From: Eledone cirrhosa
Taxonomy: Eukaryota
NCBI GenBank assembly: GCA_964016885.1
Contig: OZ024743.1
Coordinates: 350,734,001 to 350,798,000, forward strand
Length of the DNA stretch: 64,000 bases
Reading direction: 5' to 3'
The translations under genes were made by a program, and so were the position numbers. The notes under the pieces are model-generated. The model was given only the letters and a program-made list of their open reading frames with translations. It did not search any database and was not told the origin of the DNA. Positions 1 to 62,854 of the stretch are shown one piece after another (position 1 is the first letter of the stretch; each line of letters begins with the position of its first letter).

Positions 1-1451
1 CAGTAGACGTCCGCCAAGAGGCCTCCGAACAAGTCTGGCATCTGTACGTAAAGTTCATAGGGCAGACCATCCAAACCAGGCGATTTGCCCCTTGTGCAGC
101 CAGTCATCGCCTCCCTTACTTCAGCGGCTGTTATCGGCTTTTCGCAACACTTCGCCTCAGTGGCCGAGAGCCGCGGCAGTCCGTCGAGGTAGACACTAAA
201 GTCCATCCCTCTACCCGGCCCCCCGCTGCCCCCGAACAGCTGAGCGAAGTGTTGCTGAAAAGCTTCACACATTTGCCCGGGATCGAGTAGCATGCGCCCG
301 TCGTGGTCCACCAAAGACCGGATCGTGGCTTTGTTGCCACGACGCGCCTCCGCCACTCGGGCCCATTGAACGGCTTTCGTCCCCTCGTGTCTGAGAGCAC
401 GCACCCTAGCTCTGACAACGCAGCCTTCGTGCTTTGCATTGAAGAATTGGTCAAGGGCCAATTTCGCCGCAAGCACGTCGGTCGCAATGCCTTTGCTAAG
501 CGCCTCGTCTAATTTTCTAACTAGTTCTCCCTCTGCTCTATTTTTCTCTATTGCTAAAGCCTTACTAAACCTAATCGATTCTATTCTAATCGCTCTTTTC
601 AGAGCAAACCACCACTTGTTGTTGACGATGGCCCCCGTCAACGCCCGCTTAACTAGTTCGCTAATCCGGTCTCTGTAGGCCTTGCGCGCTGGTAAGGACG
701 CGTTTAGCTTCCAGTAGCCGGGTCCTCGTCTATGAAGCCTATCTAAGTCAAGCACACAGATCACAAATTTGTGGTCCGTGTAGCTGACTATCTTGAATTG
801 TGGACAGCCTATGCTAGACCTATCTATTTCCCTACAAAATACTCTATCTAGATATGATCTGGATGACCCTATGCGGTTTGTCCAAGTCCACATTGGCACA
901 TTCGGGAAATCCAATCGGTACCTGTCAGACAGTTCAAAACGCCTGAGCAGGTTGGTGAGGCTCTTGCACCCTCCACCCCTATCCGCTAATCCCACACAGT
1001 CCCAGCGTGCATCTAAGATCCCGTTCCAGTCGCCCACTAACACTAAAGAGCGGGACGTTCCAAGAAAGGTCTCCAGACGCCGGAAGAAATCAGGCCGCCC
1101 TGCTCCTGTCGGGGCATAGACGGCCACTAGCCTGAAAGCTTGCCCGTCTCCGCTGGTCACGTCCAGCACCACCAGCTTACCCTCTGGGTCCAGGAAGATG
1201 GCCCGTATGGCGAGATCCAAACCTCTCCGAAAAAGCACAGCAACTCCTCCACCGGATCCAGGACGGCTGGGAGATGCGTACACATCGAAGCCGCCGAAGA
1301 TCGGTGCGAAGGCCCGTGCTTCGGAGATTCTGGTCTCGCTGATGGCCACTACATCTATGTTTAGTGACCTGAGGTCGTTGAGCAGGTGACCCTGCTTCCA
1401 TGACGACCCCAAGCCACGCGCATTTATGCTGCCTATTCTGAGTGAGGTCAT
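1..1451 (-). CDS. ORF2 of A1, partial (APE endonuclease and linker; runs off window)
   Basis: ATG at 1451. Sequence matches A2 ORF2 offset by 6063 bp (MTSLRIGSINARG...). Confidence 0.9.
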   Translation of the reverse strand, partial: MTSLRIGSINARGLGSSWKQGHLLNDLRSLNIDVVAISETRISEARAFAPIFGGFDVYASPSRPGSGGGVAVLFRRGLDLAIRAIFLDPEGKLVVLDVTSGDGQAFRLVAVYAPTGAGRPDFFRRLETFLGTSRSLVLVGDWNGILDARWDCVGLADRGGGCKSLTNLLRRFELSDRYRLDFPNVPMWTWTNRIGSSRSYLDRVFCREIDRSSIGCPQFKIVSYTDHKFVICVLDLDRLHRRGPGYWKLNASLPARKAYRDRISELVKRALTGAIVNNKWWFALKRAIRIESIRFSKALAIEKNRAEGELVRKLDEALSKGIATDVLAAKLALDQFFNAKHEGCVVRARVRALRHEGTKAVQWARVAEARRGNKATIRSLVDHDGRMLLDPGQMCEAFQQHFAQLFGGSGGPGRGMDFSVYLDGLPRLSATEAKCCEKPITAAEVREAMTGCTRGKSPGLDGLPYELYVQMPDLFGGLLADVY

Positions 1452-1486
1452 GTTTAAAATAGAGTGGAAAAGATGGGAAAGACCAC

Positions 1487-3580
1487 TTACCGTACTTTTG
1501 GTAGAGGAGGGATGGTTTTTACATCCCTTTTCACTTGATCGTCTGGTGAAGGGACCGTTGAATCGTCCCTTCGGCTGGTCGTCGGCTCTTCTAAGAGAAT
1601 GTCTGAGTATACTCTTCGATTGATGGTTCCTCCTAGGTCCCTGAAATCACCAACTGCGTTGGGGAATTTCGTTTTAATATTTGTGTATTGTTTCTGTGCT
1701 ATTTTTAGCAGTCTTATGTTAGTTGGCGTTTTGATTGGTGCTGGTATTATGTAGTCCTGTTGTGAAATGTCTGTGTGTTCAATTATGTAAGTCATTAGTT
1801 TCTTGTTGTGTGTATTTATTGCCGTGCATTTGTTTTTCTGGGGGTGGGGTGTGGTTCTGCTATTTTCTTGTCGTTGTTGCTGGGTGTGTGTGTTTTGTTG
1901 TTGTGTTTGCGATGTTGGTGCTTGTGGTGGTGGTGTTGAAGGTGTTGTTGGCGGTGGGGTTGTCGCCGGTGGTGATGGTGGCGCTAGTGTGGGTGGTGAT
2001 GGTGTTGGTGTTGTTGCTGCTGTGGGTCTCTTTGCAGTAGACTTTACCCTTTTCTCATTTCTTTCCTCACTTTTCAAAGGCGACGATGCGCTGCTTCTGC
2101 GTTTGTGCCTTCTTACGACCTTTTGCCATCTCTCTCCCACCTCACACTCCATGTCTGATTCTGTGAGGTCGGGGAGGGGTACCAACTCCACTCTTTCACT
2201 TGTTGTTGTTGGTGATGTTTGCACTGGAGTCTCTGTTGCAGCTGCATTTGGTATTGCTGTTGTTGTTGTTAGTATTTCCACTGCTGCTGCTGTTTTTGAT
2301 TTCCGTGGAGTGGGTATGGGTGCCACGGGCCTATCGTTCCTGGTTGCCGCTTGTCCTGTTGCTGGTAGCCGTGGAGCCGGATTCGGAAGGAGGGGGGTTT
2401 TCTCCTTTCTCAGGGTCTTCTCGTTGCAGAAGGCCCTGAGGTGAGTCTTCGATCCACAGCGAAAGCATTTCGGGCGTTTGCCCTCAACACTTATGGGCAG
2501 TTGAGTGCCGTTATCGAAGTCTATCACATCCGGGATAGCTTCGATGCACTCCTGGTTGGTTTGGATTAGCATCTCAATGGAGGAGCCGACCCAATCTTCT
2601 CTTACTTTTTTCTGTACTTGCAGTACAGTTGTTTTGTCCTCGATTCCGACGAGGACAGACGCGGCCAGCCAAGAAGGGGTCATTCCGGGGGGGACGTGGG
2701 TCAGTTTGACCCTCACAATTTTTTGCCCACAGTAGGAGGGCACCAACACCATTTCCTCGCTCCTTAGGGTCACTACTGATTGGGCCTTTGCCTCCTGGGG
2801 TGTGGCAAAAAGTACGTCTACGGTGGCATATTTTTTGCCTCGGGTGATGTGCGTTTTCCGCTGCCACACAGACCCCAAGGCTTTTTGTATTTGGGCCTCT
2901 GTGGCTCTTTCCACCCTACGGGATTTTGTACTTACTGTACGGTACGTGACCGTACAGTGCTCTTGGGTTTCGAAAAAATGTTTCGCTGCCTTGCAGATTG
3001 CTCGGTGTCCGTTCTTTGTCACCATCTTCTTCGCTTCCTCTAATTCCTCATTTGTTATGAGGATTGTTTCCAAATTTTTCGCAATACCTGCAAATGAGAT
3101 TGGTTTTTCTCTGCTGTTGTTGTTGTCGTCAGAGCTGCTGGTACTTTTGTTGTTGCTGCAGGTACTACGACTACTGCCTCCGCCGCTGTTGCTGTGGTTG
3201 TTGTTGGTGTTGCTGCTGCTAATGCTGTTGTTGTTTATGCTGCTGGTGATGCTGTTGCGGCTGCTACTGTTGTTTTCATTGTCACTGTTGCTGTTGTTAT
3301 TACGGCTGCTACTGCTATTATTCCTGACGTCAGACGAATGAACTGGGTTTTCGTATTTCCCGCACACCTGTTTCGTCGCTGTCGTCGTCGTGGAGAAACC
3401 TTGCACGCTTTGCACGAGACTTTTCTTTTCTTTCGTCACTTGCGAAAGAGAAGGGAGGGAGAGAGACACATTTAAAGAAGGGAGGGAGAGAGACAATCTT
3501 CTCTCTGCTGTAGTGATGATTGAGGAAGAAGAAGACGGAATGAGTGGGAGTGACGTATGAAATTTCTTTTTCGTAGCCAT
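1487..3580 (-). CDS. ORF1 of A1, gag-like nucleic-acid-binding protein
   Basis: 697 aa. N/S-rich N-terminus, SFAGIA motif, single CX2CX4HX4C knuckle (CFRCGSKTHLRAFC), T/P-rich linker. Confidence 0.92.
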   Translation of the reverse strand: MATKKKFHTSLPLIPSSSSSIITTAERRLSLSLPSLNVSLSLPSLSQVTKEKKSLVQSVQGFSTTTTATKQVCGKYENPVHSSDVRNNSSSSRNNNSNSDNENNSSSRNSITSSINNNSISSSNTNNNHSNSGGGSSRSTCSNNKSTSSSDDNNNSREKPISFAGIAKNLETILITNEELEEAKKMVTKNGHRAICKAAKHFFETQEHCTVTYRTVSTKSRRVERATEAQIQKALGSVWQRKTHITRGKKYATVDVLFATPQEAKAQSVVTLRSEEMVLVPSYCGQKIVRVKLTHVPPGMTPSWLAASVLVGIEDKTTVLQVQKKVREDWVGSSIEMLIQTNQECIEAIPDVIDFDNGTQLPISVEGKRPKCFRCGSKTHLRAFCNEKTLRKEKTPLLPNPAPRLPATGQAATRNDRPVAPIPTPRKSKTAAAVEILTTTTAIPNAAATETPVQTSPTTTSERVELVPLPDLTESDMECEVGERWQKVVRRHKRRSSASSPLKSEERNEKRVKSTAKRPTAATTPTPSPPTLAPPSPPATTPPPTTPSTPPPQAPTSQTQQQNTHTQQQRQENSRTTPHPQKNKCTAINTHNKKLMTYIIEHTDISQQDYIIPAPIKTPTNIRLLKIAQKQYTNIKTKFPNAVGDFRDLGGTINRRVYSDILLEEPTTSRRDDSTVPSPDDQVKRDVKTIPPLPKVR

Positions 3581-3795
3581 GTTGTTTTTTGTTTAAAATG
3601 AAATTTTGGGTACAAAACCCCAATAACTGGTTATTTAACCCCGAAGGGCCAAATAACGGACAGAAAGACCCCTCTCACGAGGAGGAGGGTGTCTTTATCA
3701 ACAATTTGGTTCAAGTTTTAAACAATTTACAATTGTTTTAACGGTTAAAAATTACTATACCTTACAGAGCCGAGCCTCCGTCAACCATGGCATTC

Positions 3796-3831
<36 letters not shown>
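3796..3831. repeat. (AAT)12 junction tract; (ATT)n tail/target on element strand
   Basis: 36 nt of pure AAT between the A1 5' end and the A2 3' end. Confidence 0.97.
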
Positions 3832-3833
<2 letters not shown>

Positions 3834-3856
3834 TTTCTTTATTAACCACAAGGGTT
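3832..3856 (-). terminator. Poly(A)-signal-containing 3' terminus (repeated in every unit)
   Basis: Element strand reads CCCTTGTGGTT-AATAAA-GAAATC-(ATT)n; family B has CCCTTGTGGCC-AATAAA-TGAAATC. Confidence 0.65.
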
Positions 3857-4094
3857 TACATAAAGTAGACATTAAGGACAGTGCAGGACAATGCAGGACG
3901 GTACAAATGGGCATTTCTGCGTGTAAAAAAAACAAAAATAGAGGATGTAACAAAAATAACAATGAAAATAACAATGAAAAATTCCCCAATAGGGGGGAGA
4001 CTTCGGAGGGACATTTGTGGAGAAAGCCCAGTAAAAAGCCACAATGACCCTGACCACCAAGGCAAGTGCCCTCTCCCAGTTTTCCACCTTTAGT

Positions 4095-7000
4095 TTACAG
4101 ATATATACTCAGAGTCGGCCCATTCACTCGGGCCATTCTTGCTTCTCTCACCCATCTTTCAACAAAATGCTGGGAAGAGAGCACTTCCTTCTCTACTCTG
4201 ATTTTCCTTTTCAAATGAAATTTGAAAAAGTCAATCAGAGCATCACCGAAGAGGTAAGTGCTCGTCTTCAGCCCTTTCAAACGTGTCCACCATACTATCT
4301 CTTTCGCCATGGCCACCAGACAGATAAAAACTGCCTGCCCTTCCCGGCTAAAGGAGGAGGGCGGGGCAATCCTCACGATAGACTCAGATGATAGCTGGAT
4401 CCGTCCTAAACGCGACAGCAGGTGTTCGACATAAACCCACAAGTCAGCAATTTTCGGACACTGGACGAGTGCGTGCAGGACGGTTTCGTCGCCCTGCGCG
4501 CATCTCGGACATGCCCGGCTGACGGCACCTCCATGCCTGTAGAGTTTATCCCGAACTGGCAAGGCTCCTCGGTAGCACTGCCAGGCCAGAGATTTCTGGA
4601 AGTTGTCCATAGGCCCTGGCCCGAAAGTTCTTCCGAAGAGATTGGCTAGTTGATTTTCGTCGACGCCTAGAGTTTCCCCAAGTACGTCGTCGCTCTTCCC
4701 CTCCACTAATCCTCTATAGAACGCCGAGGTGGAGTTTCCACCGATCACATTGCCCGATTGGTCGAGGGCTGTGAGCGCCTGAAGACATTCCAGTCTCCAG
4801 GCGCTCCCTCTCGGTCTTCGCTTGACCCAGGACTGCAGCTCCGTCAAGGAAACGAGCTGGGGAAAAACGCGTCTAGCAAACGGCGACCACACCTGATCAC
4901 CGTCGAGGAAGAGGTGGAGATGTCGTAGCCTGAGCGCGTGCCTGCGCATCATCAGCCACGGCATGCCCAGCCCTCCACGTAGCGGGTGTTGACAACAGAT
5001 GGACCGCCTGACCATCGGAGCACGTCCCTTCCACAAAAAGCGAAAGAGCAAACGCTCCAGCGCAGTCAGGCGAGGCTTAGGACAAGGTACGACGGTTAGG
5101 CGGTAGCAGATGACAGACGCGATGTACGCGTTAGCCACCTCCGCTCGACCTTTCAGGGATAGCTTCCTCTCCGCCCATTTCTGGGTGAGAGAAGCCACCC
5201 TGCTCGTCACCTCGTCCCAGTTTTTGTCCGTCTGGAGGTCCGGACCGAACCAGACCCCTAGCAATTTAACCGGTCCGTCCGTCCAGCGCCCGACGACGCT
5301 GTTGGACGGCATGGACCTGCCTCTCCAGGTGCCGAGCTGCAGGCCCACTGACTTTTCCTGGTTGATCATTGCTCCTGTCACCGCTTCGTATTCTCTTAGT
5401 GTAGTGCCGATCGCCTCGATGTGTTTGGCGTTCGACACCACTACGGTGACATCGTCCGCATATGCTGACACGGATCTTCCGCATCCTAGTTCGCGCGGGA
5501 CTCCCCTCAACGTCTCCAGTTTGTGCAGTAATGGCTCGAGAGTCAATACGTACAAGAGGGACGAGAGGGGACATCCTTGGCGGACCGAGCGCATGATGTT
5601 GAACGGTTCCGACAGGTGACCGTTCACTCTCACCACAGAGCAGATGTCGCTGTGCATGGCAGCGATCCAGCCTCTGAAGACGGGCCCAAAGCCAGCCGCC
5701 CTCAGGACTGCCGCTAGGTAACGATGGTCGACCCTATCGAAAGCTTTCGACTGATCTAAATTGATCAAGGACCCACCCGTGCCAGGTTCCCTAGCTACCC
5801 TCTCTACGATGTATCGCATGAGGTGGAGGTTGTCGTGGATGGATCTGTCGGGAATGGCGCATGTCTGCGCCTCTCCCACCAGACCACCAACGACAAGCGC
5901 CAACCTCTTTGCTAGCACCTTGGCCAAAATCTTAAACTCTGTGTTTAGCAGAGTTATGGGCCGGAAATTGTCTATGTTATCCCCCTTGTTCGGATCCTTT
6001 CTCAGCAGTGCCACCGCTCCTCGGCTCACAGAACTGGGAATTCTCCCGTTCTGTTGCCAGTTGCAGTAGACGTCCGCCAAGAGGCCTCCGAACAAGTCTG
6101 GCATCTGTACGTAAAGTTCATAGGGCAGACCATCCAAACCAGGCGATTTACCCCTTGTGCAGCCAGTCATTGCCTCCCGTACTTCAGCGGCTGTTATCGG
6201 CTTTTCGCAACACTTCGCCTCAGTGGCCGAGAGCCGCGGCAGTCCGTCGAGGTAGACACTAAAGTCCATCCCTCTACCCGGCCCCCCGCTGCCCCCGAAC
6301 AGCTGAGCGAAGTGTCGCTGAAAAGCTTCACACATTTGCCCGGGATCGAGTAGCATGCGCCCGTCGTGGTCCACCAAAGACCGGATCGTGGCTTTGTTGC
6401 CACGACGCGCCTCCGCCACTCGGGCCCATTGAACGGCTTTCGTCCCCTCGTGTCTGAGAGCACGCACCCTAGCTCTGACAACGCAGCCTTCGTGCTTTGC
6501 ATTGAAGAATTGGTCAAGGGCCAATTTCGCCGCAAGCACGTCGGTCGCAATGCCTTTGCTAAGCGCCTCGTCTAATTTTCTAACTAGTTCTCCCTCTGCT
6601 CTATTTTTCTCTATTGCTAAAGCCTTACTAAACCTAATCGATTCTATTCTAATCGCTCTTTTCAGAGCAAACCACCACTTGTTGTTGACGATGGCCCCCG
6701 TCAACGCCCGCTTAACTAGTTCGCTAATCCGGTCTCTGTAGGCCTTGCGCGCTGGTAAGGACGCGTTTAGCTTCCAGTAGCCGGGTCCTCGTCTATGAAG
6801 CCTATCTAAGTCAAGCACACAGATCACGAATTTGTGGTCCGTGTAGCTGACTATCTTGAATTGTGGACAGCCTATGCTAGACCTATCTATTTCCCTACAA
6901 AATACTCTATCTAGATATGATCTGGATGACCCTATGCGGTTTGTCCAAGTCCACATTGGCACATTCGGGAAATCCAATCGGTACCTGTCAGACAGTTCAA

Positions 7001-7514
7001 AACGCCTGAGCAGGTTGGTGAGGCTCTTGCACCCTCCACCCCTATCCGCTAATCCCACACAGTCCCAGCGTGCATCTAAGATCCCGTTCCAGTCGCCCAC
7101 TAACACTAAAGAGCGGGACGTTCCAAGAAAGGTCTCCAGACGCCGGAAGAAATCAGGCCGCCCTGCTCCTGTCGGGGCATAGACGGCCACTAGCCTGAAA
7201 GCTTGCCCGTCTCCGCTGGTCACGTCCAGCACCACCAGCTTACCCTCTGGGTCCAGGAAGATGGCCCGTATGGCGAGATCCAAACCTCTCCGAAAAAGCA
7301 CAGCAACTCCTCCACCGGATCCAGGACGGCTGGGAGATGCGTACACATCGAAGCCGCCGAAGATCGGTGCGAAGGCCCGTGCTTCGGAGATTCTGGTCTC
7401 GCTGATGGCCACTACATCTATGTTTAGTGACCTGAGGTCGTTGAGCAGGTGACCCTGCTTCCATGACGACCCCAAGCCACGCGCATTTATGCTGCCTATT
7501 CTGAGTGAGGTCAT
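4095..7514 (-). CDS. ORF2 of A2: APE endonuclease, reverse transcriptase and C-terminal zinc finger
   Basis: 1139 aa. EN motifs SINARG, SET, VYAP, GDWN, YLDR, TDH; GPGYWKLN linker; RT motifs KSPGLDG, FRPITLLN, DQSKAFDRVDH, RQGCPLS, YADD; CPRC..ETVLHALVQC finger, as in L1/Tx1 ORF2. Confidence 0.97.
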   Translation of the reverse strand: MTSLRIGSINARGLGSSWKQGHLLNDLRSLNIDVVAISETRISEARAFAPIFGGFDVYASPSRPGSGGGVAVLFRRGLDLAIRAIFLDPEGKLVVLDVTSGDGQAFRLVAVYAPTGAGRPDFFRRLETFLGTSRSLVLVGDWNGILDARWDCVGLADRGGGCKSLTNLLRRFELSDRYRLDFPNVPMWTWTNRIGSSRSYLDRVFCREIDRSSIGCPQFKIVSYTDHKFVICVLDLDRLHRRGPGYWKLNASLPARKAYRDRISELVKRALTGAIVNNKWWFALKRAIRIESIRFSKALAIEKNRAEGELVRKLDEALSKGIATDVLAAKLALDQFFNAKHEGCVVRARVRALRHEGTKAVQWARVAEARRGNKATIRSLVDHDGRMLLDPGQMCEAFQRHFAQLFGGSGGPGRGMDFSVYLDGLPRLSATEAKCCEKPITAAEVREAMTGCTRGKSPGLDGLPYELYVQMPDLFGGLLADVYCNWQQNGRIPSSVSRGAVALLRKDPNKGDNIDNFRPITLLNTEFKILAKVLAKRLALVVGGLVGEAQTCAIPDRSIHDNLHLMRYIVERVAREPGTGGSLINLDQSKAFDRVDHRYLAAVLRAAGFGPVFRGWIAAMHSDICSVVRVNGHLSEPFNIMRSVRQGCPLSSLLYVLTLEPLLHKLETLRGVPRELGCGRSVSAYADDVTVVVSNAKHIEAIGTTLREYEAVTGAMINQEKSVGLQLGTWRGRSMPSNSVVGRWTDGPVKLLGVWFGPDLQTDKNWDEVTSRVASLTQKWAERKLSLKGRAEVANAYIASVICYRLTVVPCPKPRLTALERLLFRFLWKGRAPMVRRSICCQHPLRGGLGMPWLMMRRHALRLRHLHLFLDGDQVWSPFARRVFPQLVSLTELQSWVKRRPRGSAWRLECLQALTALDQSGNVIGGNSTSAFYRGLVEGKSDDVLGETLGVDENQLANLFGRTFGPGPMDNFQKSLAWQCYRGALPVRDKLYRHGGAVSRACPRCAQGDETVLHALVQCPKIADLWVYVEHLLSRLGRIQLSSESIVRIAPPSSFSREGQAVFICLVAMAKEIVWWTRLKGLKTSTYLFGDALIDFFKFHLKRKIRVEKEVLSSQHFVERWVREARMARVNGPTLSIYL

Positions 7515-9902: not shown

Positions 9903-10163
9903 TTTCTTTATTAACCACAAGGGTTTACATAAAGTAGACATTAAGGACAGTGCAGGACAATGCAGGACGGTACAAATGGGCATTTCTGCGTGTAAAAAAA
10001 ACAAAAATAGAGGATGTAACAAAAATAACAATGAAAATAACAATGAAAAATTCCCCAATAGGGGGGAGACTTCGGAGGGACATTTGTGGAGAAAGCCCAG
10101 TAAAAAGCCACAATGACCCTGACCACCAAGGCAAGTGCCCTCTCCCAGTTTTCCACCTTTAGT

Positions 10164-34390: not shown

Positions 34391-37300
34391 TTACAGATAT
34401 ATACTCAGAGTCGGCCCATTCACTCGGGCCATTCTTGCTTCTCTCACCCATCTTTCAACAAAATGCTGGGAAGAGAGCACTTCCCTCTCTACTCTGATTT
34501 TCCTTTTCAAATGAAATTTGAAAAAGTCAATCAGAGCATCACCGAAGAGGTAAGTGCTCGTCTTCAGCCCTTTCAAACGTGTCCACCATACTATCTCTTT
34601 CGCCATGGCCACCAGACAGATAAAAACTGCCTGCCCTTCCCGGCTAAAGGAGGAGGGCGGGGCAATCCTCACGATGGACTCAGATGATAGCTGGATCCGT
34701 CCTAAACGCGACAGCAGGTGTTCGACATAAACCCACAAGTCAGCAATTTTCGGACACTGGACGAGTGCGTGCAGGACGGTTTCGTCGCCCTGCGCGCATC
34801 TCGGACATGCCCGGCTGACGGCACCTCCATGCCTGTAGAGTTTATCCCGAACTGGCAAGGCTCCTCGGTAGCACTGCCAGGCCAGAGATTTCTGGAAGTT
34901 GTCCATAGGCCCCGGCCCGAAAGTTCTTCCGAAGAGATTGGCTAGTTGATTTTCGTCGACGCCTAGAGTTTCCCCAAGTACGTCGTCGCTCTTCCCCTCC
35001 ACTAATCCTCTATAGAACGCCGAGGTGGAGTTTCCACCGATCACATTGCCCGATTGGTCGAGGGCTGTGAGCGCCTGAAGACATTCCAGTCTCCAGGCGC
35101 TCCCTCTCGGTCTTCGCTTGACCCAGGACTGCAGCTCCGTCAAGGAAACGAGCTGGGGAAAAACGCGTCTAGCAAACGGCGACCACACCTGATCACCGTC
35201 GAGGAAGAGGTGGAGATGTCGTAGCCTGAGCGCGTGCCTGCGCATCATCAGCCACGGCATGCCCAGCCCTCCACGTAGCGGGTGTTGACAACAGATGGAC
35301 CGCCTGACCATCGGAGCACGTCCCTTCCACAAAAAGCGAAAGAGCAAACGCTCCAGCGCAGTCAGGCGAGGCTTAGGACAAGGTACGACGGTTAGGCGGT
35401 AGCAGATGACAGACGCGATGTACGCGTTAGCCACCTCCGCTCGACCTTTCAGGGATAGCTTCCTCTCCGCCCATTTCTGGGTGAGAGAAGCCACCCTGCT
35501 CGTCACCTCGTCCCAGTTTTTGTCCGTCTGGAGGTCCGGACCGAACCAGACCCCTAGCAATTTAACCGGTCCGTCCGTCCAGCGCCCGACGACGCTGTTG
35601 GACGGCATGGACCTGCCTCTCCAGGTGCCGAGCTGCAGGCCCACTGACTTTTCCTGGTTGATCATTGCTCCTGTCACCGCTTCGTATTCTCTTAGTGTAG
35701 TGCCGATCGCCTCGATGTGTTTGGCGTTCGACACCACTACGGTGACATCGTCCGCATATGCTGACACGGATCTTCCGCATCCTAGTTCGCGCGGGACTCC
35801 CCTCAACGTCTCCAGTTTGTGCAGTAATGGCTCGAGAGTCAATACGTACAAGAGGGACGAGAGGGGACATCCTTGGCGGACCGAGCGCATGATGTTGAAC
35901 GGTTCCGACAGGTGACCGTTCACTCTCACCACAGAGCAGATGTCGCTGTGCATGGCAGCGATCCAGCCTCTGAAGACGGGCCCAAAGCCAGCCGCCCTCA
36001 GGACTGCCGCTAGGTAACGATGGTCGACCCTATCGAAAGCTTTCGACTGATCTAAATTGATCAAGGACCCACCCGTGCCAGGTTCCCTAGCTACCCTCTC
36101 TACGATGTATCGCATGAGGTGGAGGTTGTCGTGGATGGATCTGTCGGGAATGGCGCATGTCTGCGCCTCTCCCACCAGACCACCAACGACAAGCGCCAAC
36201 CTCTTTGCTAGCACCTTGGCCAAAATCTTAAACTCTGTGTTTAGCAGAGTTATGGGCCTGAAATTGTCTATGTTATCCCCCTTGTTCGGATCCTTTCTCA
36301 GCAGTGCCACCGCTCCTCGGCTCACAGAACTGGGAATTCTCCCGTTCTGTTGCCAGTTGCAGTAGACGTCCGCCAAGAGGCCTCCGAACAAGTCTGGCAT
36401 CTGTACGTAAAGTTCATAGGGCAGACCATCCAAACCAGGCGATTTACCCCTTGTGCAGCCAGTCATTGCCTCCCGTACTTCAGCGGCTGTTATCGGCTTT
36501 TCGCAACACTTCGCCTCAGTGGCCGAGAGCCGCGGCAGTCCGTCGAGGTAGACACTAAAGTCCATCCCTCTACCCGGCCCCCCGCTGCCCCCGAACAGCT
36601 GAGCGAAGTGTCGCTGAAAAGCTTCACACATTTGCCCGGGATCGAGTAGCATGCGCCCGTCGTGGTCCACCAAAGACCGGATCGTGGCTTTGTTGCCACG
36701 ACGCGCCTCCGCCACTCGGGCCCATTGAACGGCTTTCGTCCCCTCGTGTCTGAGAGCACGCACCCTAGCTCTGACAACGCAGCCTTCGTGCTTTGCATTG
36801 AAGAATTGGTCAAGGGCCAATTTCGCCGCAAGCACGTCGGTCGCAATGCCTTTGCTAAGCGCCTCGTCTAATTTTCTAACTAGTTCTCCCTCTGCTCTAT
36901 TTTTCTCTATTGCTAAAGCCTTACTAAACCTAATCGATTCTATTCTAATCGCTCTTTTCAGAGCAAACCACCACTTGTTGTTGACGATGGCCCCCGTCAA
37001 CGCCCGCTTAACTAGTTCGCTAATCCGGTCTCTGTAGGCCTTGCGCGCTGGTAAGGACGCGTTTAGCTTCCAGTAGCCGGGTCCTCGTCTATGAAGCCTA
37101 TCTAAGTCAAGCACACAGATCACGAATTTGTGGTCCGTGTAGCTGACTATCTTGAATTGTGGACAGCCTATGCTAGACCTATCTATTTCCCTACAAAATA
37201 CTCTATCTAGATATGATCTGGATGACCCTATGCGGTTTGTCCAAGTCCACATTGGCACATTCGGGAAATCCAATCGGTACCTGTCAGACAGTTCAAAACG

Positions 37301-37810
37301 CCTGAGCAGGTTGGTGAGGCTCTTGCACCCTCCACCCCTATCCGCTAATCCCACACAGTCCCAGCGTGCATCTAAGATCCCGTTCCAGTCGCCCACTAAC
37401 ACTAAAGAGCGCGACGTTCCAAGAAAGGTCTCCAGACGCCGGAAGAAATCAGGCCGCCCTGCTCCTGTCGGGGCATAGACGGCCACTAGCCTGAAAGCTT
37501 GCCCGTCTCCGCTGGTCACGTCCAGCACCACCAGCTTACCCTCTGGGTCCAGGAAGATGGCCCGTATGGCGAGATCCAAACCTCTCCGAAAAAGCACAGC
37601 AACTCCTCCACCCGATCCAGGACGGCTGGGAGATGCGTACACATCGTAGCCGCCGAAGATCGGTGCGAAGGCCCGTGCTTCGGAGATTCTGGTCTCGCTG
37701 ATGGCCACTACATCTATGTTTAGTGACCTGAGGTCGTTGAGCAGGTGACCCTGCTTCCATGACGACCCCAAGCCACGCGCATTTATGCTGCCTATTCTGA
37801 GTGAGGTCAT
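34391..37810 (-). CDS. ORF2 of A7 (EN-RT-zf)
   Basis: 1139 aa, uninterrupted. Confidence 0.97.
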   Translation of the reverse strand: MTSLRIGSINARGLGSSWKQGHLLNDLRSLNIDVVAISETRISEARAFAPIFGGYDVYASPSRPGSGGGVAVLFRRGLDLAIRAIFLDPEGKLVVLDVTSGDGQAFRLVAVYAPTGAGRPDFFRRLETFLGTSRSLVLVGDWNGILDARWDCVGLADRGGGCKSLTNLLRRFELSDRYRLDFPNVPMWTWTNRIGSSRSYLDRVFCREIDRSSIGCPQFKIVSYTDHKFVICVLDLDRLHRRGPGYWKLNASLPARKAYRDRISELVKRALTGAIVNNKWWFALKRAIRIESIRFSKALAIEKNRAEGELVRKLDEALSKGIATDVLAAKLALDQFFNAKHEGCVVRARVRALRHEGTKAVQWARVAEARRGNKATIRSLVDHDGRMLLDPGQMCEAFQRHFAQLFGGSGGPGRGMDFSVYLDGLPRLSATEAKCCEKPITAAEVREAMTGCTRGKSPGLDGLPYELYVQMPDLFGGLLADVYCNWQQNGRIPSSVSRGAVALLRKDPNKGDNIDNFRPITLLNTEFKILAKVLAKRLALVVGGLVGEAQTCAIPDRSIHDNLHLMRYIVERVAREPGTGGSLINLDQSKAFDRVDHRYLAAVLRAAGFGPVFRGWIAAMHSDICSVVRVNGHLSEPFNIMRSVRQGCPLSSLLYVLTLEPLLHKLETLRGVPRELGCGRSVSAYADDVTVVVSNAKHIEAIGTTLREYEAVTGAMINQEKSVGLQLGTWRGRSMPSNSVVGRWTDGPVKLLGVWFGPDLQTDKNWDEVTSRVASLTQKWAERKLSLKGRAEVANAYIASVICYRLTVVPCPKPRLTALERLLFRFLWKGRAPMVRRSICCQHPLRGGLGMPWLMMRRHALRLRHLHLFLDGDQVWSPFARRVFPQLVSLTELQSWVKRRPRGSAWRLECLQALTALDQSGNVIGGNSTSAFYRGLVEGKSDDVLGETLGVDENQLANLFGRTFGPGPMDNFQKSLAWQCYRGALPVRDKLYRHGGAVSRACPRCAQGDETVLHALVQCPKIADLWVYVEHLLSRLGRIQLSSESIVRIAPPSSFSREGQAVFICLVAMAKEIVWWTRLKGLKTSTYLFGDALIDFFKFHLKRKIRVEREVLSSQHFVERWVREARMARVNGPTLSIYL

Positions 37811-37845
37811 GTTTAAAATAGAGTGGAAAAGATGGGAAAGACCAC

Positions 37846-39939
37846 TTACCGTATTTTTGGTAGAGGAGGGATGGTTTTTACATCCCTTTTCACTTGATCG
37901 TCTGGTGAAGGGACCGTTGAATCGTCCCTTCGGCTGGTCGTCGGCTCTTCTAAGAGAATGTCTGAATATACTCTTCGATTAATGGTTCCTCCTAGGTCCC
38001 TGAAATCACCAACTGCGTTGGGGAATTTCGTTTTAATGTTTGTGTATTGTTTCTGTGCTATTTTTAGCAGTCTTATGTTAGTTGGCGTTTTGATTGGTGC
38101 TGGTATTATGTAGTCCTGTTGTGAAATGTCTGTGTGTTCAATTATGTAAGTCATTAGTTTCTTGTTGTGTGTGTTTATTGCCGTGCATTTGTTTTTCTGG
38201 GGGTGGGGTGTGGTTCTGCTATTTTCTTGTCGTTGTTGCTGGGTGTGTGTGTTTTGTTGTTGTGTTTGCGATGTTGGTGCTTGTGGTGGTGGTGTTGAAG
38301 GTGTTGTTGGCGGTGGGGTTGTCGCCGGTGGTGATGGTGGTGCTGGTGTGGGTGGTGATGGTGTTGGTGGTGTTGCTGCTGTGGGTCTCTTTGCAGTAGA
38401 CTTTACCCTTTTCTCATTTCTTTCCTCCCTTTTCAAAGGCGACGATGCGCTGCTTCTGCGTTTGTGCCTTCTTGAGACCTTTTGCCATCCCTCTCCCACC
38501 TCACACTCCATGTCTGATTCTGTAAGGTCGGGGAGGGGTACCAGCTCCACTCTTTCACTTGTTGTTGTTGGTGATGTTTGCACTGGAGTCTCTGTTGCAG
38601 CTGCATTTGGTATTGCTGTTGTTGTTGTTAATATTTCCACTGCTGCTGCTGTCTTTGATTTCCGTGGAGTGGGTATGGGTGCCACGGACCTATCGTTCCT
38701 GGTTGCCGCTTGTCCTGTTGCTGGTAGCCGTGGAACCGGATTCGGGAGGAGGGGGGTTTTCTCCTTTCTCAGGGTCTTCTCGTTGCAGAAGGCCCTGAGG
38801 TGAGTCTTCGATCCACAGCGAAAGCATTTCGGGCGTTTGCCCTCAACACTTATGGGCAGTTGAGTGCCGTTATCGAAGTCTATCACATCCGGGATAGCTT
38901 CGATGCACTCCTGGTTGGTTTGGATTAGCATCTCAATGGAGGAGCCGACCCAATCTTCTCTTACTTTTTTCTGTACTTGCAGTACAGTTGTTTTGTCCTC
39001 GATTCCGACGAGGACAGACGCGGCCAGCCAAGAAGGGGTCATTCCGGGGGGGACGTGGGTCAGTTTGACCCTCACAATTTTTTGCCCGCAGTAGGAGGGC
39101 ACCAACACCATTTCCTCGCTCCTTAGGGTCACTACTGATTGGGCCTTTGCCTCCTGGGGTGTGGCAAAAAGTACGTCTACGGTGGCGTATTTTTTGCCTC
39201 GGGTGATGTGCGTTTTCCTCTGCCACACAGACCCCAAGGCTTTTTGTATTTGGGCCTCTGTGGCTCTTTCCACCCTACGGGATTTTGTACTTACTGTACG
39301 GTACGTGACCGTACAGTGCTCTTGGGTTTCGAAAAAATTTTTCGCTGCCTTGCAGATTGCTCGGTGTCCGTTCTTTGTCACCATCTTCTTCGCTTCCTCT
39401 AATTCCTCATTTGTTATGAGGATTGTTTCCAGGTTTTTCGCAATACCTGCAAATGAGATTGGTTTTTCTCTGCTGTTGTTGTTGTCGTCAGAGCTGCTGG
39501 TACTTTTGTTGTTGCTGCAGGTACTACGACTACTGCCTCCGCCGCTGTTGCTGTGGTTGTTGTTGGTGTTGCTGCTGCTAATGCTGTTGTTGTTTATGCT
39601 GCTGGTGATGCTGTTGCGGCTGCTACTGTTGTTTTCATTGTCACTGTTGCTGTTGTTATTACGGCTGCTACTGCTATTATTCCTGACGTCAGACGAATGA
39701 ACTGGGTTTTCGTATTTCCCGCACACCTGTTTCGTCGCTGTCGTCGTCGTCGTGGAGAAACCTTGCACGCTTTGCACGAGACTTTTCTTTTCTTTCGTCA
39801 CTTGCGAAAGAGAAGGGAGGGAGAGAGACACATTTAAAGAAGGGAGGGAGAGAGACAATCTTCTCTCTGCTGTAGTGATGATTGAGGAAGAAGACGGAAT
39901 GAGTGGGAGTGACGTATGAAAATTCTTTTTCGTAGCCAT
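37846..39939 (-). CDS. ORF1 of A7
   Basis: ATG at 39939; intact. Confidence 0.9.
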   Translation of the reverse strand: MATKKNFHTSLPLIPSSSSIITTAERRLSLSLPSLNVSLSLPSLSQVTKEKKSLVQSVQGFSTTTTTATKQVCGKYENPVHSSDVRNNSSSSRNNNSNSDNENNSSSRNSITSSINNNSISSSNTNNNHSNSGGGSSRSTCSNNKSTSSSDDNNNSREKPISFAGIAKNLETILITNEELEEAKKMVTKNGHRAICKAAKNFFETQEHCTVTYRTVSTKSRRVERATEAQIQKALGSVWQRKTHITRGKKYATVDVLFATPQEAKAQSVVTLRSEEMVLVPSYCGQKIVRVKLTHVPPGMTPSWLAASVLVGIEDKTTVLQVQKKVREDWVGSSIEMLIQTNQECIEAIPDVIDFDNGTQLPISVEGKRPKCFRCGSKTHLRAFCNEKTLRKEKTPLLPNPVPRLPATGQAATRNDRSVAPIPTPRKSKTAAAVEILTTTTAIPNAAATETPVQTSPTTTSERVELVPLPDLTESDMECEVGEGWQKVSRRHKRRSSASSPLKREERNEKRVKSTAKRPTAATPPTPSPPTPAPPSPPATTPPPTTPSTPPPQAPTSQTQQQNTHTQQQRQENSRTTPHPQKNKCTAINTHNKKLMTYIIEHTDISQQDYIIPAPIKTPTNIRLLKIAQKQYTNIKTKFPNAVGDFRDLGGTINRRVYSDILLEEPTTSRRDDSTVPSPDDQVKRDVKTIPPLPKIR

Positions 39940-40154
39940 GTTTTTTTTTTGTTTAAAATAAATATTGGGCACAAAACCCCAATAAGCGGTTATTTAACCC
40001 CGAAGGGCTAAATAACGGGCAGAAAGACCCCTCTCACGAGGAGGAGGGTGTTTTTGTCTACAAGTTGGTTAAAGTTTTAAACAATTTACAATTGTTATAG
40101 CGGTCAAAATTTACAATACCTTACAGAGCCGAGCCTCCGTCAACCATAGCATTC

Positions 40155-40193
<39 letters not shown>
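40155..40193. repeat. (AAT)13 junction tract between A7 and B
   Basis: 39 nt of pure AAT. Confidence 0.97.
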
Positions 40194-40195
<2 letters not shown>

Positions 40196-40447
40196 TTTCA
40201 TTTATTGGCCACAAGGGCCGACATATAGGGGACAACACAATAGACAGGGACAGTGGGGGTTTACATAGAGATCGAGTAAGTATAAATAACAAAAAAAACA
40301 AAATAACAATAAAAATACAACAATGAAAGTTCCCCAATAAGAGGGATCACCACCCAGGGTTGACTCAAGCACCCCACCAGTCCTGAGCCACCCGACGCTC
40401 CTAGGGCACCCGGGAAGGGCACCCCTCTCCTTCTCGAATTCACCAGC

Positions 40448-43400
40448 CTACAGGCGCATGATCAGAGTAGGCCCACTCACGCGGGCCATTCTCGCCACAT
40501 TCACCCACCTTTCAGTAAATGTACTGGGGGGCAGCACTTCTCTCTCCACCCTCACCTTCCTTTCCAAGTGAAACTTGAAGAAGTTGATGAGGGATTGGCC
40601 GAAGAGAAAAGTGTCTGTCTTCAGTCCTTTCAACCTGGTCCACCATGCAACCTCTTTCGCTACTGCCACCAGGCAGAGGAAAATTGCCTGCCCTTCCTGA
40701 CCAAAAGAAGGCGGCGGGTCAATCTTCACTATGGACTCGGACGATAGCCGGATCCGTCCTACACGCGACAATAGCTGTTCGACATAACCCCACAAGTCAG
40801 CAATGCACGGACACTGGACGAGTGCGTGCAGAACGGTTTCGTCGCTCTGCGCGCATCTCGGGCAGGTTCGTCTGACAGCACTTCCGTGCCTGTAGAGTTT
40901 ATCCCGAACCGGCAGCGCCCCCCGGTAGCACTGCCAAGCGAGGGATTTCTGGAAGTTATCCATCGTCCCCGGCTCGAAAGTCCTCCGGAACATACTGGTC
41001 AGTTCTACTTCGTTGACGCCCAGAGCCTCTCCTAGTACGTCATCGCACTTGCCCTCCACTAATCCTCTATAGAAATCTTGAGTGGAAGTTCCACTGACCG
41101 CATTGCCCACCTTGCAGAGTGCAGTGAGCGCCTGGCAACATTCCAGATGCCAGTCGCCCAGTCTCGGTCTCTTCTTGACCCAGGACTGCAGCTCAGTCAA
41201 AGAGATGAGCTGCGGAAAGGCCCGTCTAACAAACGGCGACCACACCTGTTCACCGTTTAGGCAAAATATCTGGAGATGTCGCAGCCTCAGCGCATGTCTG
41301 CGCATCATTAGCCACGGCATGCCCAGCCCTCCACGAAGAGGGTGCTGGCAGCAGATGGACCGCCTCACCAACGGGACCCGTCCCCTCCACAAAAATTTGA
41401 AAAGGAGCCGTTCCAAATTGGCGAGGCGTGGACGGGGGCAAGGCACGACGGTCAGGCGGTAGTAGATGACGGACGCGATGTACGCGTTCGCCACCTCCGC
41501 CCGCCCTTTCAGTGATAGCTTTCTCTCAGCCCATTTCTGGGTGAGGTTGGCTATCCTGCTCGTCACCTCGTCCCAATTCTTATCCACCTGGAGGTCTGGT
41601 CCGAACCAAACCCCGAGCAACTTTACCGGTCCGTCTGTCCAGCGCCCAACGACGCTGTTGGACGGCATGGACTTGCCTCTCCAGGTGCCGAGCTGCAAGC
41701 CCACCGACTTTTCCGGGTTAAGTTTTGCTCCCGTCAACCTTTCATATTCCTCCAAATGGGTGCGGATCACCTCGATTTCCGAGGTGTCCGACACCATCAC
41801 GGTGATGTCGTCCGCATAAGCGGACGCAGCCTTTCTACGTCCCGGTTCGAGCGGGATGCCCTGCAACAACTCCAGCTTCCGCAGTAGAGGCTCAAGAGTC
41901 AATACGTACAGAAGTGAGGAGAGAGGGCACCCTTGACGGACCGATCGAGAGATCTGAAACGGTTCCGAGAGGTGGCCATTAACTTTGACCACCGAGCGGA
42001 TGCCGCTGTACATTGCAGCGATCCAGCTTCTGAAGACGGGGCCGAAGCCAGCCGCCTCGAGGACAGCCTCCAAGTACCGATGGTCGACCCTATCGAATGC
42101 TTTCGATTGATCTAAATTGATCAGAGCCCCACCGAAGCCAGGTTTGCACCCAACCCTCTCTATGATGTATCGCATGAGGTGGAGGTTGTCGTGTATGGAC
42201 CTGGTCGGGATTGCGCAAGTTTGCGCCTCCCCAACCAAATCTTTGACGACAAGCGCCAACCTTTTCGCTAACACCTTGGCCAAAATCTTAAACTCTGTGT
42301 TGAGCAGGGTTATGGGCCTGAAATTATCTAGTGTGTCCCTCTTGTTCTCGTCTTTCCTTATCAGCGTCACTACGCCACGGCTCACAGAACTGGGAATGCT
42401 CCCGTTCTGCTGCCAGTTGCAGTAGAGCGCTTCGAGGAGATCGGAGAACAAGTCTGGCATATTTACGTAAAGCTCGTAGGGCAGACCATCCAAACCGGGT
42501 GACTTGCGACTCGAGCAGCCGACAAGGGCGTCCTGAATTTCGGCTGATGTTATCGGCTCTTCGCAGCGCTCAGCGTCGGCCGTCGAGAGGCGTGGCAAGC
42601 CGTCGAGGTAGGGACTGAAGTCCGCCGCCGTCTCCGACTCACCCATCCTCCCGAACAATCGAGCAAAGTGCTGGCGAAAGGCCTCACACATCCGCTTGGA
42701 ATCGCTCAGTTCGTGTCCATCTCGATCCGTCAAAGACCGAATTGTGGTTTTATTTCCACGCTGCGTCTCTGCAAAGCGAGCCCATCGGGCAGCTTTGGTT
42801 CCCTCGTTCCTCAGAGCACGCGCCTTAGCTCTGACAATGCAACCTTCGTGTTTCGCATTGAAGAAATGGTCTAGTGCCATTCTCGCCGCTAGCACGTCTG
42901 TTGCAATGCCACTACAAATAGCCTCGTCTAACTTAGCTATCAGCCCCTCCTCCTTTCTATTTTTCTCTATTGCTACTTCTTTGCTAAATCCTATCGAGGT
43001 TGCTCTAATCTCTCTTTTGAGTGCCCCCCACCACCTGTTGTTGACAACCCCCCCTGTCAACTTTTGCTTAACTAAGTTGTTGACCCGGTCCCTGTAAGCT
43101 TTACGTGCCGGAAACGACATGTTTAGCTTCCAGTAGCTCGGTCCTAACCTACGTGTCTTATCTAGGTCGACCATACAGATCACAAGCTTGTGATCTGAAT
43201 AGGCAACCGTTTTAAAATGTGGACATCCTACACTATTTCTATCTCTTTTCCTAATGAAAATCCTATCTATGTACGATCTAGATGACCCTATGCGATTGGT
43301 CCAGGTCCATACTGGCGCATTAGGGAAATCTAGTCGGTACCTGTCAGACAGTTGAAACTGGCTGATCAGGTACTTGAGGCTTTTGCACCCCCCGCTCCTA

Positions 43401-43867
43401 TCAGATACTCCCACACAATCCCAGCGTGCTTCTAAGATGCCATTCCAATCCCCTATTAACAGTAAAGGGCGAGACGTAAGCAGAAAGTTTTCCAGGCGCC
43501 TAAAGAAGTCCGGCCGACCGGCCCCAGTAGGGGCGTAGACGGCCACCAGTCTAAAGGCACCACCTTCGCTATTGCTCACGTCCAGGACCACCAACTTTCC
43601 GTCAGGATCCCGGAAGATTGACCTTACCTCGAGATCCAGACATTTCCTAAACAGCACAGCCACTCCACCTCCCATTCCCGGCCGACTAACAGATGCAAAG
43701 ATCTGATAATCGTCGAAAATCGGCGCCAGTGCGCGTGTGTCGGAAATTCTGGTCTCGCTGATGGCAATTACATCCATTCCTAGTGACCTGAGGTCGTTGA
43801 GCAAGTGACCTTGCTTCCAGGGCGACCCCAGGCCACGAACATTTAAACTTCCTACTCTTATGGCCAT
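40448..43867 (-). CDS. ORF2 of family B (EN-RT-zf)
   Basis: 1139 aa, collinear with A ORF2 with many substitutions; catalytic motifs GDWN, SDH and YADD present. Confidence 0.97.
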   Translation of the reverse strand: MAIRVGSLNVRGLGSPWKQGHLLNDLRSLGMDVIAISETRISDTRALAPIFDDYQIFASVSRPGMGGGVAVLFRKCLDLEVRSIFRDPDGKLVVLDVSNSEGGAFRLVAVYAPTGAGRPDFFRRLENFLLTSRPLLLIGDWNGILEARWDCVGVSDRSGGCKSLKYLISQFQLSDRYRLDFPNAPVWTWTNRIGSSRSYIDRIFIRKRDRNSVGCPHFKTVAYSDHKLVICMVDLDKTRRLGPSYWKLNMSFPARKAYRDRVNNLVKQKLTGGVVNNRWWGALKREIRATSIGFSKEVAIEKNRKEEGLIAKLDEAICSGIATDVLAARMALDHFFNAKHEGCIVRAKARALRNEGTKAARWARFAETQRGNKTTIRSLTDRDGHELSDSKRMCEAFRQHFARLFGRMGESETAADFSPYLDGLPRLSTADAERCEEPITSAEIQDALVGCSSRKSPGLDGLPYELYVNMPDLFSDLLEALYCNWQQNGSIPSSVSRGVVTLIRKDENKRDTLDNFRPITLLNTEFKILAKVLAKRLALVVKDLVGEAQTCAIPTRSIHDNLHLMRYIIERVGCKPGFGGALINLDQSKAFDRVDHRYLEAVLEAAGFGPVFRSWIAAMYSGIRSVVKVNGHLSEPFQISRSVRQGCPLSSLLYVLTLEPLLRKLELLQGIPLEPGRRKAASAYADDITVMVSDTSEIEVIRTHLEEYERLTGAKLNPEKSVGLQLGTWRGKSMPSNSVVGRWTDGPVKLLGVWFGPDLQVDKNWDEVTSRIANLTQKWAERKLSLKGRAEVANAYIASVIYYRLTVVPCPRPRLANLERLLFKFLWRGRVPLVRRSICCQHPLRGGLGMPWLMMRRHALRLRHLQIFCLNGEQVWSPFVRRAFPQLISLTELQSWVKKRPRLGDWHLECCQALTALCKVGNAVSGTSTQDFYRGLVEGKCDDVLGEALGVNEVELTSMFRRTFEPGTMDNFQKSLAWQCYRGALPVRDKLYRHGSAVRRTCPRCAQSDETVLHALVQCPCIADLWGYVEQLLSRVGRIRLSSESIVKIDPPPSFGQEGQAIFLCLVAVAKEVAWWTRLKGLKTDTFLFGQSLINFFKFHLERKVRVEREVLPPSTFTERWVNVARMARVSGPTLIMRL

Positions 43868-43896
43868 GCTGGCAGGATGAATGGGAGAGGAAAGGT

Positions 43897-45807: not shown

Positions 45808-46017
45808 GTTTTTTTGAGAAAAAAATTATTATTTTTTTCAAAATAAAGTTCAAATATTTGGGCCAAAAGGCCCAAATATTATGAGTTATTCCTTCACAGG
45901 ATACAAATTAATGTCTTATAATGCTTCAGCGGTACAAAAAATAAACAATTCTCTACAATTAATCCTCAAAAAATTGCTTACTCACGGAGCTTCAAAAAAC
46001 GTACATCCACTTTCGTC

Positions 46018-46035
46018 AATAATAATAATAATAAT
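46018..46035. repeat. (AAT)6 flanking the 5' end of family B
   Basis: 18 nt of AAT followed by (AT)n and non-element sequence. Confidence 0.9.
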
Positions 46036-46570
46036 ATATATATAATACACCCCATGACAGCTTTTACATGTCAATTCTATACATCTGCCTCATGTCAGCT
46101 AGTTTTACACGCTAAAGTCGTAGATATACTATATTTCTTACCTAGATTGATGTTGTGATTATTTCAAATAATTTATTGCTAGCATTGTTAGTATTGTTGT
46201 TATTGTTCTGATTGAATACCATTACTACTATATATAGTAGCCATGCCTGTATATTCCTTTCATTCTCACAAGCTCCGATGAATTGACTGGTTACAACTAT
46301 GTATTGGTGATCGAATAACGTGAAAACAAGCGGGTAGCGATCTCTAGACCTACCAGTTCAGAGAAACAATTGTCAGCAATGAGATTAAAAACCTATTTTG
46401 TATAGCAAACCGTGTCACTCTTCCTTCCTGATTTATCATTACTCCAAGTGTTAACAACATAGAAATTACCGCGTACTCGCAGCATGACTATGGAAACGCC
46501 TTGTTGAGTCAAACTTAGCCTAACTGGACTACACTTAAGTGGACTACCTATAACATAATCTGTTACCCCG

Positions 46571-47972: not shown

Positions 47973-48127
47973 CAGGTAAAATTCCGTTATAACGAATACC
48001 ATTATAACGAATTTTTCAGTATAACGGAATTTGTTCTACCCCCGGCCACACATTCGATGTGTTAAGTCGATCTCGTTATAAAGAATTTTTCGTTACAACG
48101 AATATTTTTTATACCCCGTGAATTTCG
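47973..48127. mobile_element. pogo/Tigger-like MITE end
   Basis: TA followed by CAGGTAAAATTCCGTTATAACG with repeated (CG)TTATAACG motifs; the other terminus was not found. Confidence 0.45.
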
Positions 48128-48128
48128 C

Positions 48129-61721: not shown

Positions 61722-61989
61722 ATCTAGATAGTGATATTCTACATTACCAACTGTCCAAGATTTATATATTTAACTGTCATTATAGTGCCGTGGTAGCATT
61801 GATAACATTTCTTCTTGCATGACTGACTGTTGAACACCTTTAGTATTTACTTCTGGTCTCGCGTTGTTCCTTTCACTGTTCAATACATTTGTTCCAGTTC
61901 ATGAACATCTGAGAAGGGAAATATATCGTTGTCAAACATATATAACTTAAAAATTCATAATACATATTCATTCATTTTTAATCCCAGGT

Positions 61990-62750: not shown

Positions 62751-62854
62751 GAAACGTGATGTTTTATTCACTCCTCAGTAATATTGATATCTACTTTAGG
62801 TACAAAACCAATAATTTGAAGGGTAGTGAAAGTCGATTACATTGACCCAATACA

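Follow-up and report, generated by a model that had tools for sequence, protein, structure and literature searches.

A putative scaffold of splice-donor-type sites near the 5′ end and at the ORF stops of Tx1-like LINEs arrayed in the Eledone cirrhosa genome

Comparing the two LINE families of this stretch of DNA with a distantly related clade, we find good support for the motif at about +31 of the elements being a selected splice-donor-type site; we regard it as quite probable that selection maintains it as a U1-type site. On sequence evidence, the core that has been conserved consists of a scaffold of such donor sites, one near the 5′ end (D1) and one at the ORF1 stop (D2), to which the distant clade adds a donor at the ORF2 stop with an acceptor in the 3′UTR. 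The ORF1-skipping mRNA proposed in the initial annotation is not part of that core: its +31 motif stands as a donor-type site by virtue of the distant clade, while the splice from D1 to the start of ORF2 is plausible for the two local families, A and B, only. Our preferred reading, which we put forward tentatively, is that D1 would be a cap-proximal U1 site within a conserved splice scaffold, the unspliced RNA being the template and a minority ORF1-skipping mRNA being plausible in A and B.

Bases 1–46017 of the window (the whole 64,000-nucleotide stretch analysed) form a minus-strand, head-to-tail array of ~6 kb units with (ATT)6–15 between them, made up of seven nearly identical copies of family A and one copy of family B. 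Each unit has a 5′UTR of 210–215 nt, and all eight 5′ ends lie directly after (ATT)n; it is from this boundary in the DNA that element 5′ ends were set, and start sites are putative. Dispersed fragments end with short ATT tails, and the roles of (ATT)n as tail and as target are not separable. The coding regions and a representative junction are as follows:

1487–3580, minus strand: family A ORF1, ~697 aa, one CCHC knuckle
4095–7514, minus strand: ORF2 of family A, first complete copy, with AP endonuclease, reverse transcriptase and zf-RVT (Pfam)
43897–45807, minus strand: family B ORF1, 636 aa
40448–43867, minus strand: family B ORF2, 1139 aa, 75% identity to A
3796–3843, minus strand: AATAAA and (ATT)12 between units

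These are two-ORF non-LTR retrotransposons of the L1 group, and Tx1-like. In both families ORF2 carries an N-terminal AP endonuclease, a reverse transcriptase and a C-terminal zinc region (PF03372, PF00078 and PF13966), its closest solved protein being L1 ORF2p (E 6.6e-111; R2, E 1e-39); the two ORFs are accompanied by a 3′ AATAAA and by 5′-truncated copies (two 3′ fragments in the window, three in the distant contigs). Among the close relatives, Argonauta hians is the sole named animal, at 55%. Between A and B, BLAST gives no useful alignment for either ORF1 DNA or the 5′UTRs. ORF1 of both families has no Pfam match, and a homologue search returned none among 1924 candidates; the core of family B ORF1 has zf-CCHC and ZCCHC3-RBD look-alikes in Atlas (0.89–0.92), and a CCHC knuckle is visible in the ORF1 of each unit. 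An RNA-binding domain plus CCHC knuckle is a feature of Tx1 ORF1, and membership of the Tx1 clade is likely for A and B. Two ORFs, an AP endonuclease with reverse transcriptase, association with simple repeats and an animal host are all shared with Kibi, Koshi and Keno of that clade, as described in the available part of PMC4494074; the Tx1 repeats are (TC)n and (TTC)n, in contrast to (ATT)n here. The same part of that paper makes no mention of a splice scaffold. L1-Tx1 families have been recently active in Octopus vulgaris (PMC13282606, available text).

Following the elements from their 5′ ends, the features that surround D1 are these:

3766–3795, minus strand: putative family A mini-exon, the first 30 nt of the element
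3761–3765, minus strand: family A D1, GTAAG at +31, with a second candidate GT at 3760
3762–3788, minus strand: family A uORF of eight codons, with a strong-context ATG at 3788 and its stop within D1
3630–3696, minus strand: two family A 5′UTR hairpins, ~3696–3664 and 3657–3630 (fold z −3.35)
45980–46017, minus strand: putative family B mini-exon (32 nt) and D1, GTGAGT at +33

The initial annotation had placed a donor at about +31 in A and a GTGAGT donor in B, and had read a uORF whose stop falls in the A donor; all of this holds. Counted from an element start at 3795, the GT at 3765 is kept in all seven A copies, the same mini-exon recurring in those that start at 9858, 15928, 21975, 28042, 34083 and 40154, and in B the 5′ end lies at 46017 with the GT at 45985. 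Absent from that account were the four-codon uORF that the family B mini-exon holds, the native A ORF2 ATG at 1451 (upstream of the acceptor proposed there), the stronger ORF1-stop donor in both families and the folding of the UTRs: the 5′UTRs of A and B fold better than all 200 shuffles, with a hairpin ahead of ORF1 in each, that of B following D1 (arms 45981–45968 and 45954–45941) and the first of those in A resembling a hairpin in one class (type I) of distant-clade UTR. Repeats of ATTGT, perhaps reminiscent of HMG-box sites in DNA or of RNA elements of the germline, also lie 3′ of D1, three in A (3700–3765) and two in B (45920–45985), and are frequent in the distant UTRs.

D1 is a moderate donor overall (ranks 10–47 across A, B and the distant representatives), standing at 45–47 of 312 GT sites in A and 17 of 293 in B; donors were ranked by duplex energy against a consensus, and our scoring of donors and of acceptors is a crude, home-made proxy. 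The chance of finding GTRAG within the first 45 nt is 4–5% per family in UTR shuffles, and 14–25% when only those 45 nt are shuffled. A broader pattern, TGG..ACG..GCTCYGTRAG, had been claimed as common to A and B; its GTRAG donor is borne out by the distant clade, and the wider 5′-end similarity is not significant against shuffles (P 0.08–0.20). The two types of A 5′UTR differ at one position in the first 39 nt and at ~18 across the UTR, again not significantly (P 0.12).

At the ORF1/ORF2 junction, and in the 3′UTR of A, we see a second set of candidate sites:

1485–1493, minus strand: family A D2, a strong donor across the ORF1 stop, GT at 1490
1438–1486, minus strand: family A pyrimidine-rich spacer, with the native ORF2 ATG at 1451 and a CAG acceptor at 1440–1438
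3917–3946, minus strand: family A A3, pyrimidine tract and CAG in the 3′UTR of copy A2 (rank 1 of 210)
43899–43907, minus strand: D2 of family B, where ORF1 ends, with its GT at 43904 (rank 1 of 293)
43869–43896, minus strand: pyrimidine tract of family B with a CAG that stops one base short of the ORF2 ATG at 43867

D2 of family A ranks second of 312, supplies the element's sole sense-strand GGTRAGT and is present in 7/7 copies; the distance from D2 to the ORF2-start acceptor is 53 nt in A and 36 nt in B. The B acceptor, a pyrimidine tract with a CAG ending at 43869 just as the initial annotation described, ranks first of 179 YAGs, and its A counterpart, lying within ORF2 codons 4–5 and so downstream of the native ATG, ranks 15–16 of 210 and is no better than shuffles (P 0.41). 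Pyrimidines make up 26/35 of the A spacer and 23/29 of that in B, an enrichment over their own UTRs in a binomial test (P 0.02 and 0.004), which we preferred to a shuffle of the B spacer (P 1e-4) in which coding and non-coding bases were mixed. In the 3′UTR, A3 differs from shuffles of that region at P 0.027, and ranking of YAGs gives no counterpart to it in B; since the UTRs are T-rich, acceptor scores are inflated.

Joining 3766 to 1437 does, as had been proposed, bring the mini-exon of A into frame with ORF2, yet three of the six combinations of uATG and AG in this family are in frame, so that such joins are cheap. More support for an ORF2-start splice comes from the arrangement of start codons: in A the first AG falls past the native ATG and a strong in-frame uATG is present, and in B the AG precedes the ATG and none is needed. 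The same splice is weakened by the distant clade, which has D1 but no such acceptor, by the stronger D2 located 36–53 nt upstream, and by retention of the native ORF2 ATG, seen in 6/6 close relatives that reach the N-terminus; N-termini of the mini-exon type occur in none of 30 short relatives, six of them reaching the N-terminus, these sequences having probably been called on DNA.

Scanning genome contigs, we obtained 44 loci, of which 40 belong to a single record with arrays whose ORF2 shows 40–44% identity. We analysed 18 contigs of this record (two in part), yielding 68 ORF2 starts and 14 UTR clusters, one of which is a truncated unit. The contigs (C3–C19 of G001; L004–L041, L044 and L045) are eukaryote-like and carry mostly intact tandem LINEs in what is a bacterial MAG record; they are most likely DNA of the host that was binned together with its bacterium. 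ORF2 of this clade has 41% identity to A/B, at a tree path of >1.7 to neighbouring rows; a quick, provisional tree, built without named Tx1 reference rows, sets A/B apart from the distant elements with strong support and places one divergent family (C13) nearer the main distant clade. As all distant subfamilies were taken from a single record and share common ancestry, we count them as one lineage beside A/B. Distant units end in AATAAA with no poly(A) tail, and a spacer of 12–20 nt lies between them; in one contig (C17) a near-identical 18-mer flanks the array at both ends, resembling a target-site duplication.

A 5′ GTRAG is found in 12 of the 13 full UTR clusters of the distant clade. In type-I UTRs (six clusters, 40 units) D1 lies at +31 to +43, the 5′ end being taken after removal of the 12–20 nt spacer, directly past which truncated units also start; preceded by a conserved A-run, it forms the longest invariant run, 10 nt, in an alignment of five of the six subtypes where 72/400 columns are invariant. 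Type-I UTRs show no conserved acceptor. In type-II UTRs the donor is once more the longest invariant run (alignment of seven sequences), lies ~100–130 nt past the upstream AATAAA and constitutes one arm of a hairpin; 17/17 units pair it with an acceptor 175–199 nt downstream, ranked first in 4/4 representatives and including a CAG-to-TAG change. A looser type-II donor pattern, with 13 true matches among 30, was not counted. By inspection, the non-donor letters of the A/B motif are absent from the distant UTRs.

D2 recurs in 65/68 distant units, with 14 nt to the ORF2 ATG, and ranks 1–4 of 360–401 GT sites in 10/11 representatives. Past the ORF2 stop comes a third donor, D3, as GTAAGT (36) or GTGAGT (28), a change that fits the splice consensus, and the 3′UTR holds an acceptor that is among the top four in 9/11 representatives. 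At the ORF2 start, acceptors rank 36–107 of 165–216, i.e. they are absent there. A further acceptor candidate, inside ORF1 and ~160 nt ahead of ORF2, is among the top four in 6/11 representatives; its pyrimidines are largely dictated by the amino acids, with no clear codon bias once three representatives with frame problems are left out, and D2 sits between it and ORF2. Extra synonymous conservation was not shown for the distant ORF1 end, 83% of third positions in ORF2 being invariant as well.

The C13 family (L035; 3 of 68 units) has neither D1 nor D2, and in it the stop of ORF1 overlaps the start of ORF2 (TAATG); it retains the ORF2-stop donor and 3′UTR acceptors. Having this overlap in place of the two donors, the C13 family suggests that the scaffold can be dispensed with there. 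Inspection of another two-ORF element (L042) likewise revealed no 5′ donor motif.

Spliced genomic copies were sought among these same contexts. The initial annotation had pointed to retrotransposed copies lacking exactly the predicted intron; none was found in the window, where the GT is kept in 8/8 contexts of D1 and of D2, or in the distant contigs, where it is kept in 45/45 type-I D1, 65/65 D2 and 64/64 D3 contexts. Such absence counts against splicing, as cis-preference would predict some; the sampled contigs are arrays of full-length copies, dispersed spliced copies falling outside the sample. In contigs from four runs compared with 37300–46100, no predicted splice occurs among the 15 joints listed (1838 more unlisted, and repeats adjoining both mini-exons skipped). 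A metagenome scan added three distant partial loci, all without 5′ ends, and of 73 stretches in a viral scan none was confirmed.

Taken as a mechanism, our preferred reading would run as follows. U1 bound to D1 near the cap would support full-length transcription by Pol II, and the unspliced RNA would be the only propagating template, part of the RNA being spliced. D1 would in A and B most likely pair with the ORF2-start acceptor, giving a minority SpORF2-like mRNA that skips ORF1 and starts translation from the mini-exon in A and from the native ATG in B; in type-II elements D1 would splice to the UTR acceptor, and D2 or D3 to that of the 3′UTR. D2 itself is probably too near the ORF2-start acceptor and may splice farther downstream (to the 3′UTR in A and the distant clade), which would leave an ORF1-only mRNA. 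With donors within 15–40 nt of the stop, such mRNAs would escape nonsense-mediated decay.

The main alternative, in our view unlikely, is that the donors are U1 landing sites rarely used for splicing, D1 blocking early termination and D2/D3 suppressing premature poly(A) sites; the next unit's D1, 57–81 nt past the AATAAA of the preceding unit, may also suppress that signal and allow read-through along the array. Poly(A) hexamers in the 3′ half of ORF1, shortly before D2 in A and B, would suit this explanation, as would the failure to find spliced copies, the lack of a conserved acceptor in type-I UTRs, and the position of the donor within a hairpin arm (type II) or 5′ of a hairpin (B). It also has parallels: the +97 donor of human L1 is, according to the available part of PMC5860796, conserved and, though mostly left unspliced, required to maintain RNA levels, its mutation cutting RNA ~5-fold (the authors invoke a RUNX3 site), and U1 suppresses polyadenylation in foamy viruses (PMC3694450, as far as available). 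It leaves unexplained, however, the paired top-ranked acceptors at fixed distances and the strong in-frame uATG of A, and a site acting purely as a U1 decoy would have to be stronger than D1.

We think it rather unlikely that the clade uses programmed, ‘retrovirus-like’ splicing with separate spliced mRNAs for ORF1 and ORF2, only unspliced RNA being copied into DNA, e.g. through a signal inside the 3′UTR intron that the ORF2 protein recognises. If true, such splicing would keep spliceosomal introns through retrotransposition and would break the cis-preference rule of L1-type elements.

That the 5′ motif is instead a DNA element of an internal Pol II promoter, its likeness to a donor incidental, was also raised in the initial annotation, and we consider it improbable. 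Downstream core-promoter elements act at about +31 to +43, and the fixed position of the motif (~+31 to +43) and the conserved A-run ahead of it in type-I UTRs would both agree with such a role. There is a precedent in the RUNX3 site of human L1, for which the same has been argued (PMC5860796, available part). The recurrence of the same motif at both ORF stops nonetheless makes a promoter element the less likely explanation; its variation follows the splice consensus, the bases ahead of the GT differ between lineages, and in type II it is found ~100–130 nt past the upstream AATAAA within an RNA hairpin.

Yet another arrangement would have the ORF2-start acceptor of A and B serve D2, a 53-nt intron dropping the ORF1 stop and fusing ORF1 to ORF2 with D1 only boosting transcription. 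D2 is indeed the strongest or second strongest donor, and a 53-nt GT–AG intron is in frame in both A (to 1438) and B (to 43852), but an intron of this length is very short for an animal, the AG needed in B is the fourth past the tract (rank 79 of 179), and the best AG of B gives 36 nt, out of frame. Elements of the distant clade, moreover, could not form such a fusion, since their stop lies ahead of the donor and the spacer measures 14 nt, and no close fused protein appears among matches of 626–1994 aa; we regard this arrangement as distinctly improbable. Chance, finally, is a most improbable origin for the 5′ motif: although GTRAG occurs 13–15 times per element, the wider motif is not significant, and the donor is missing from the C13 family and, by inspection, from L042, its position is alike in A, in B and in 40 units of the distant clade, and no invariant block in either UTR class is longer.

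Returning to the scaffold of donors and its putative splicing, several known systems bear comparison, each here as given in the available parts of the papers cited. Human L1 splices from 97 to 1837 to give a translatable ORF2 mRNA, SpORF2, that skips ORF1 (PMC2896524). The A/B elements resemble SpORF2/SpIREs in having a conserved 5′UTR donor, a splice that would remove ORF1 and leave ORF2 translatable (predicted here), and spliced genomic copies that are rare; as far as sequence tells, the 5′UTR donor is found, and the candidate acceptor that would leave ORF2 translatable is strong in B, serves only via the uATG in A and has no equivalent in the distant clade. Unlike human L1, the donor lies at +31 to +43 (L1, +97), donors also mark the ORF stops rather than being the by-product of a RUNX3 site, and the splice in A would replace the first five codons of ORF2; our elements, furthermore, are known from DNA.

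Ty1/copia elements offer a second comparison: splicing removes the enzyme ORF to generate a subgenomic gag mRNA, an abundant message for structural protein made beside the unspliced template (PMC7197481). The predicted splice from D2 to the 3′UTR would likewise yield a structural-protein mRNA; a donor is found at the end of the first ORF, and an acceptor downstream of the enzyme ORF in A and 9/11 distant representatives, with none in B. Ty1/copia elements are, by contrast, LTR elements with one gag-pol ORF whose splicing has been shown on RNA, whereas splicing here is predicted and B is without a 3′UTR acceptor.

A 5′ splice site can block early termination independently of splicing (PMC12211998), and a donor in the first transcribed bases recalls the transcription-licensing 5′ splice sites found close to the cap (PMC12211998; bioRxiv 10.64898/2026.09.28.754465). 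That licensing has been shown for mammalian genes and scales with donor strength; D1, in comparison, is a moderate donor and a putative U1 site. Introns are also mentioned for RNAs made from L1, Tad and Penelope and for antisense TART transcripts (PMC1636488). In the literature searched, with subscription papers mostly, Repbase and supplements outside its scope, we found no paper describing a LINE clade with conserved donors both at the 5′ end and at the ORF stops.

By what means a two-ORF LINE obtains a large excess of ORF1 over ORF2 protein from a single RNA is an open question, as is why L1 retains a 5′ donor that yields only dead-end copies. The donor-keeping clade and its C13 relative, without two of the donors and with a stop–start overlap, provide a natural comparison, one that makes splicing versus licensing by U1 directly testable.

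The window and the loci scanned hold some further features of note. The 5′UTRs of the A copies (window 1–40154) are of two types (T,T,C,T,C,T,C along the array), both common in run X1, and variants of ORF1 and ORF2 are patterned otherwise, from which we conclude that the seven copies are mosaics. Beyond the array lie two 5′-truncated B-like fragments on the plus strand (~47140–47970 and 48120–48660; ~80% identity to B), each ending with AATAAA and a short ATT tail, in a flank where microsatellites are abundant. An Rfam search of the window gave no match. A GC-rich island at 61955–62845, with overlapping 220-aa frames and no Pfam match, is probably the remnant of another mobile element. The element at L042, with 29% ORF2 identity, sits between U1 snRNA genes at 3036–3199 and 9961–10137, the first of them ~210 nt ahead of its ORF1, and possibly targets arrays of U1 genes.
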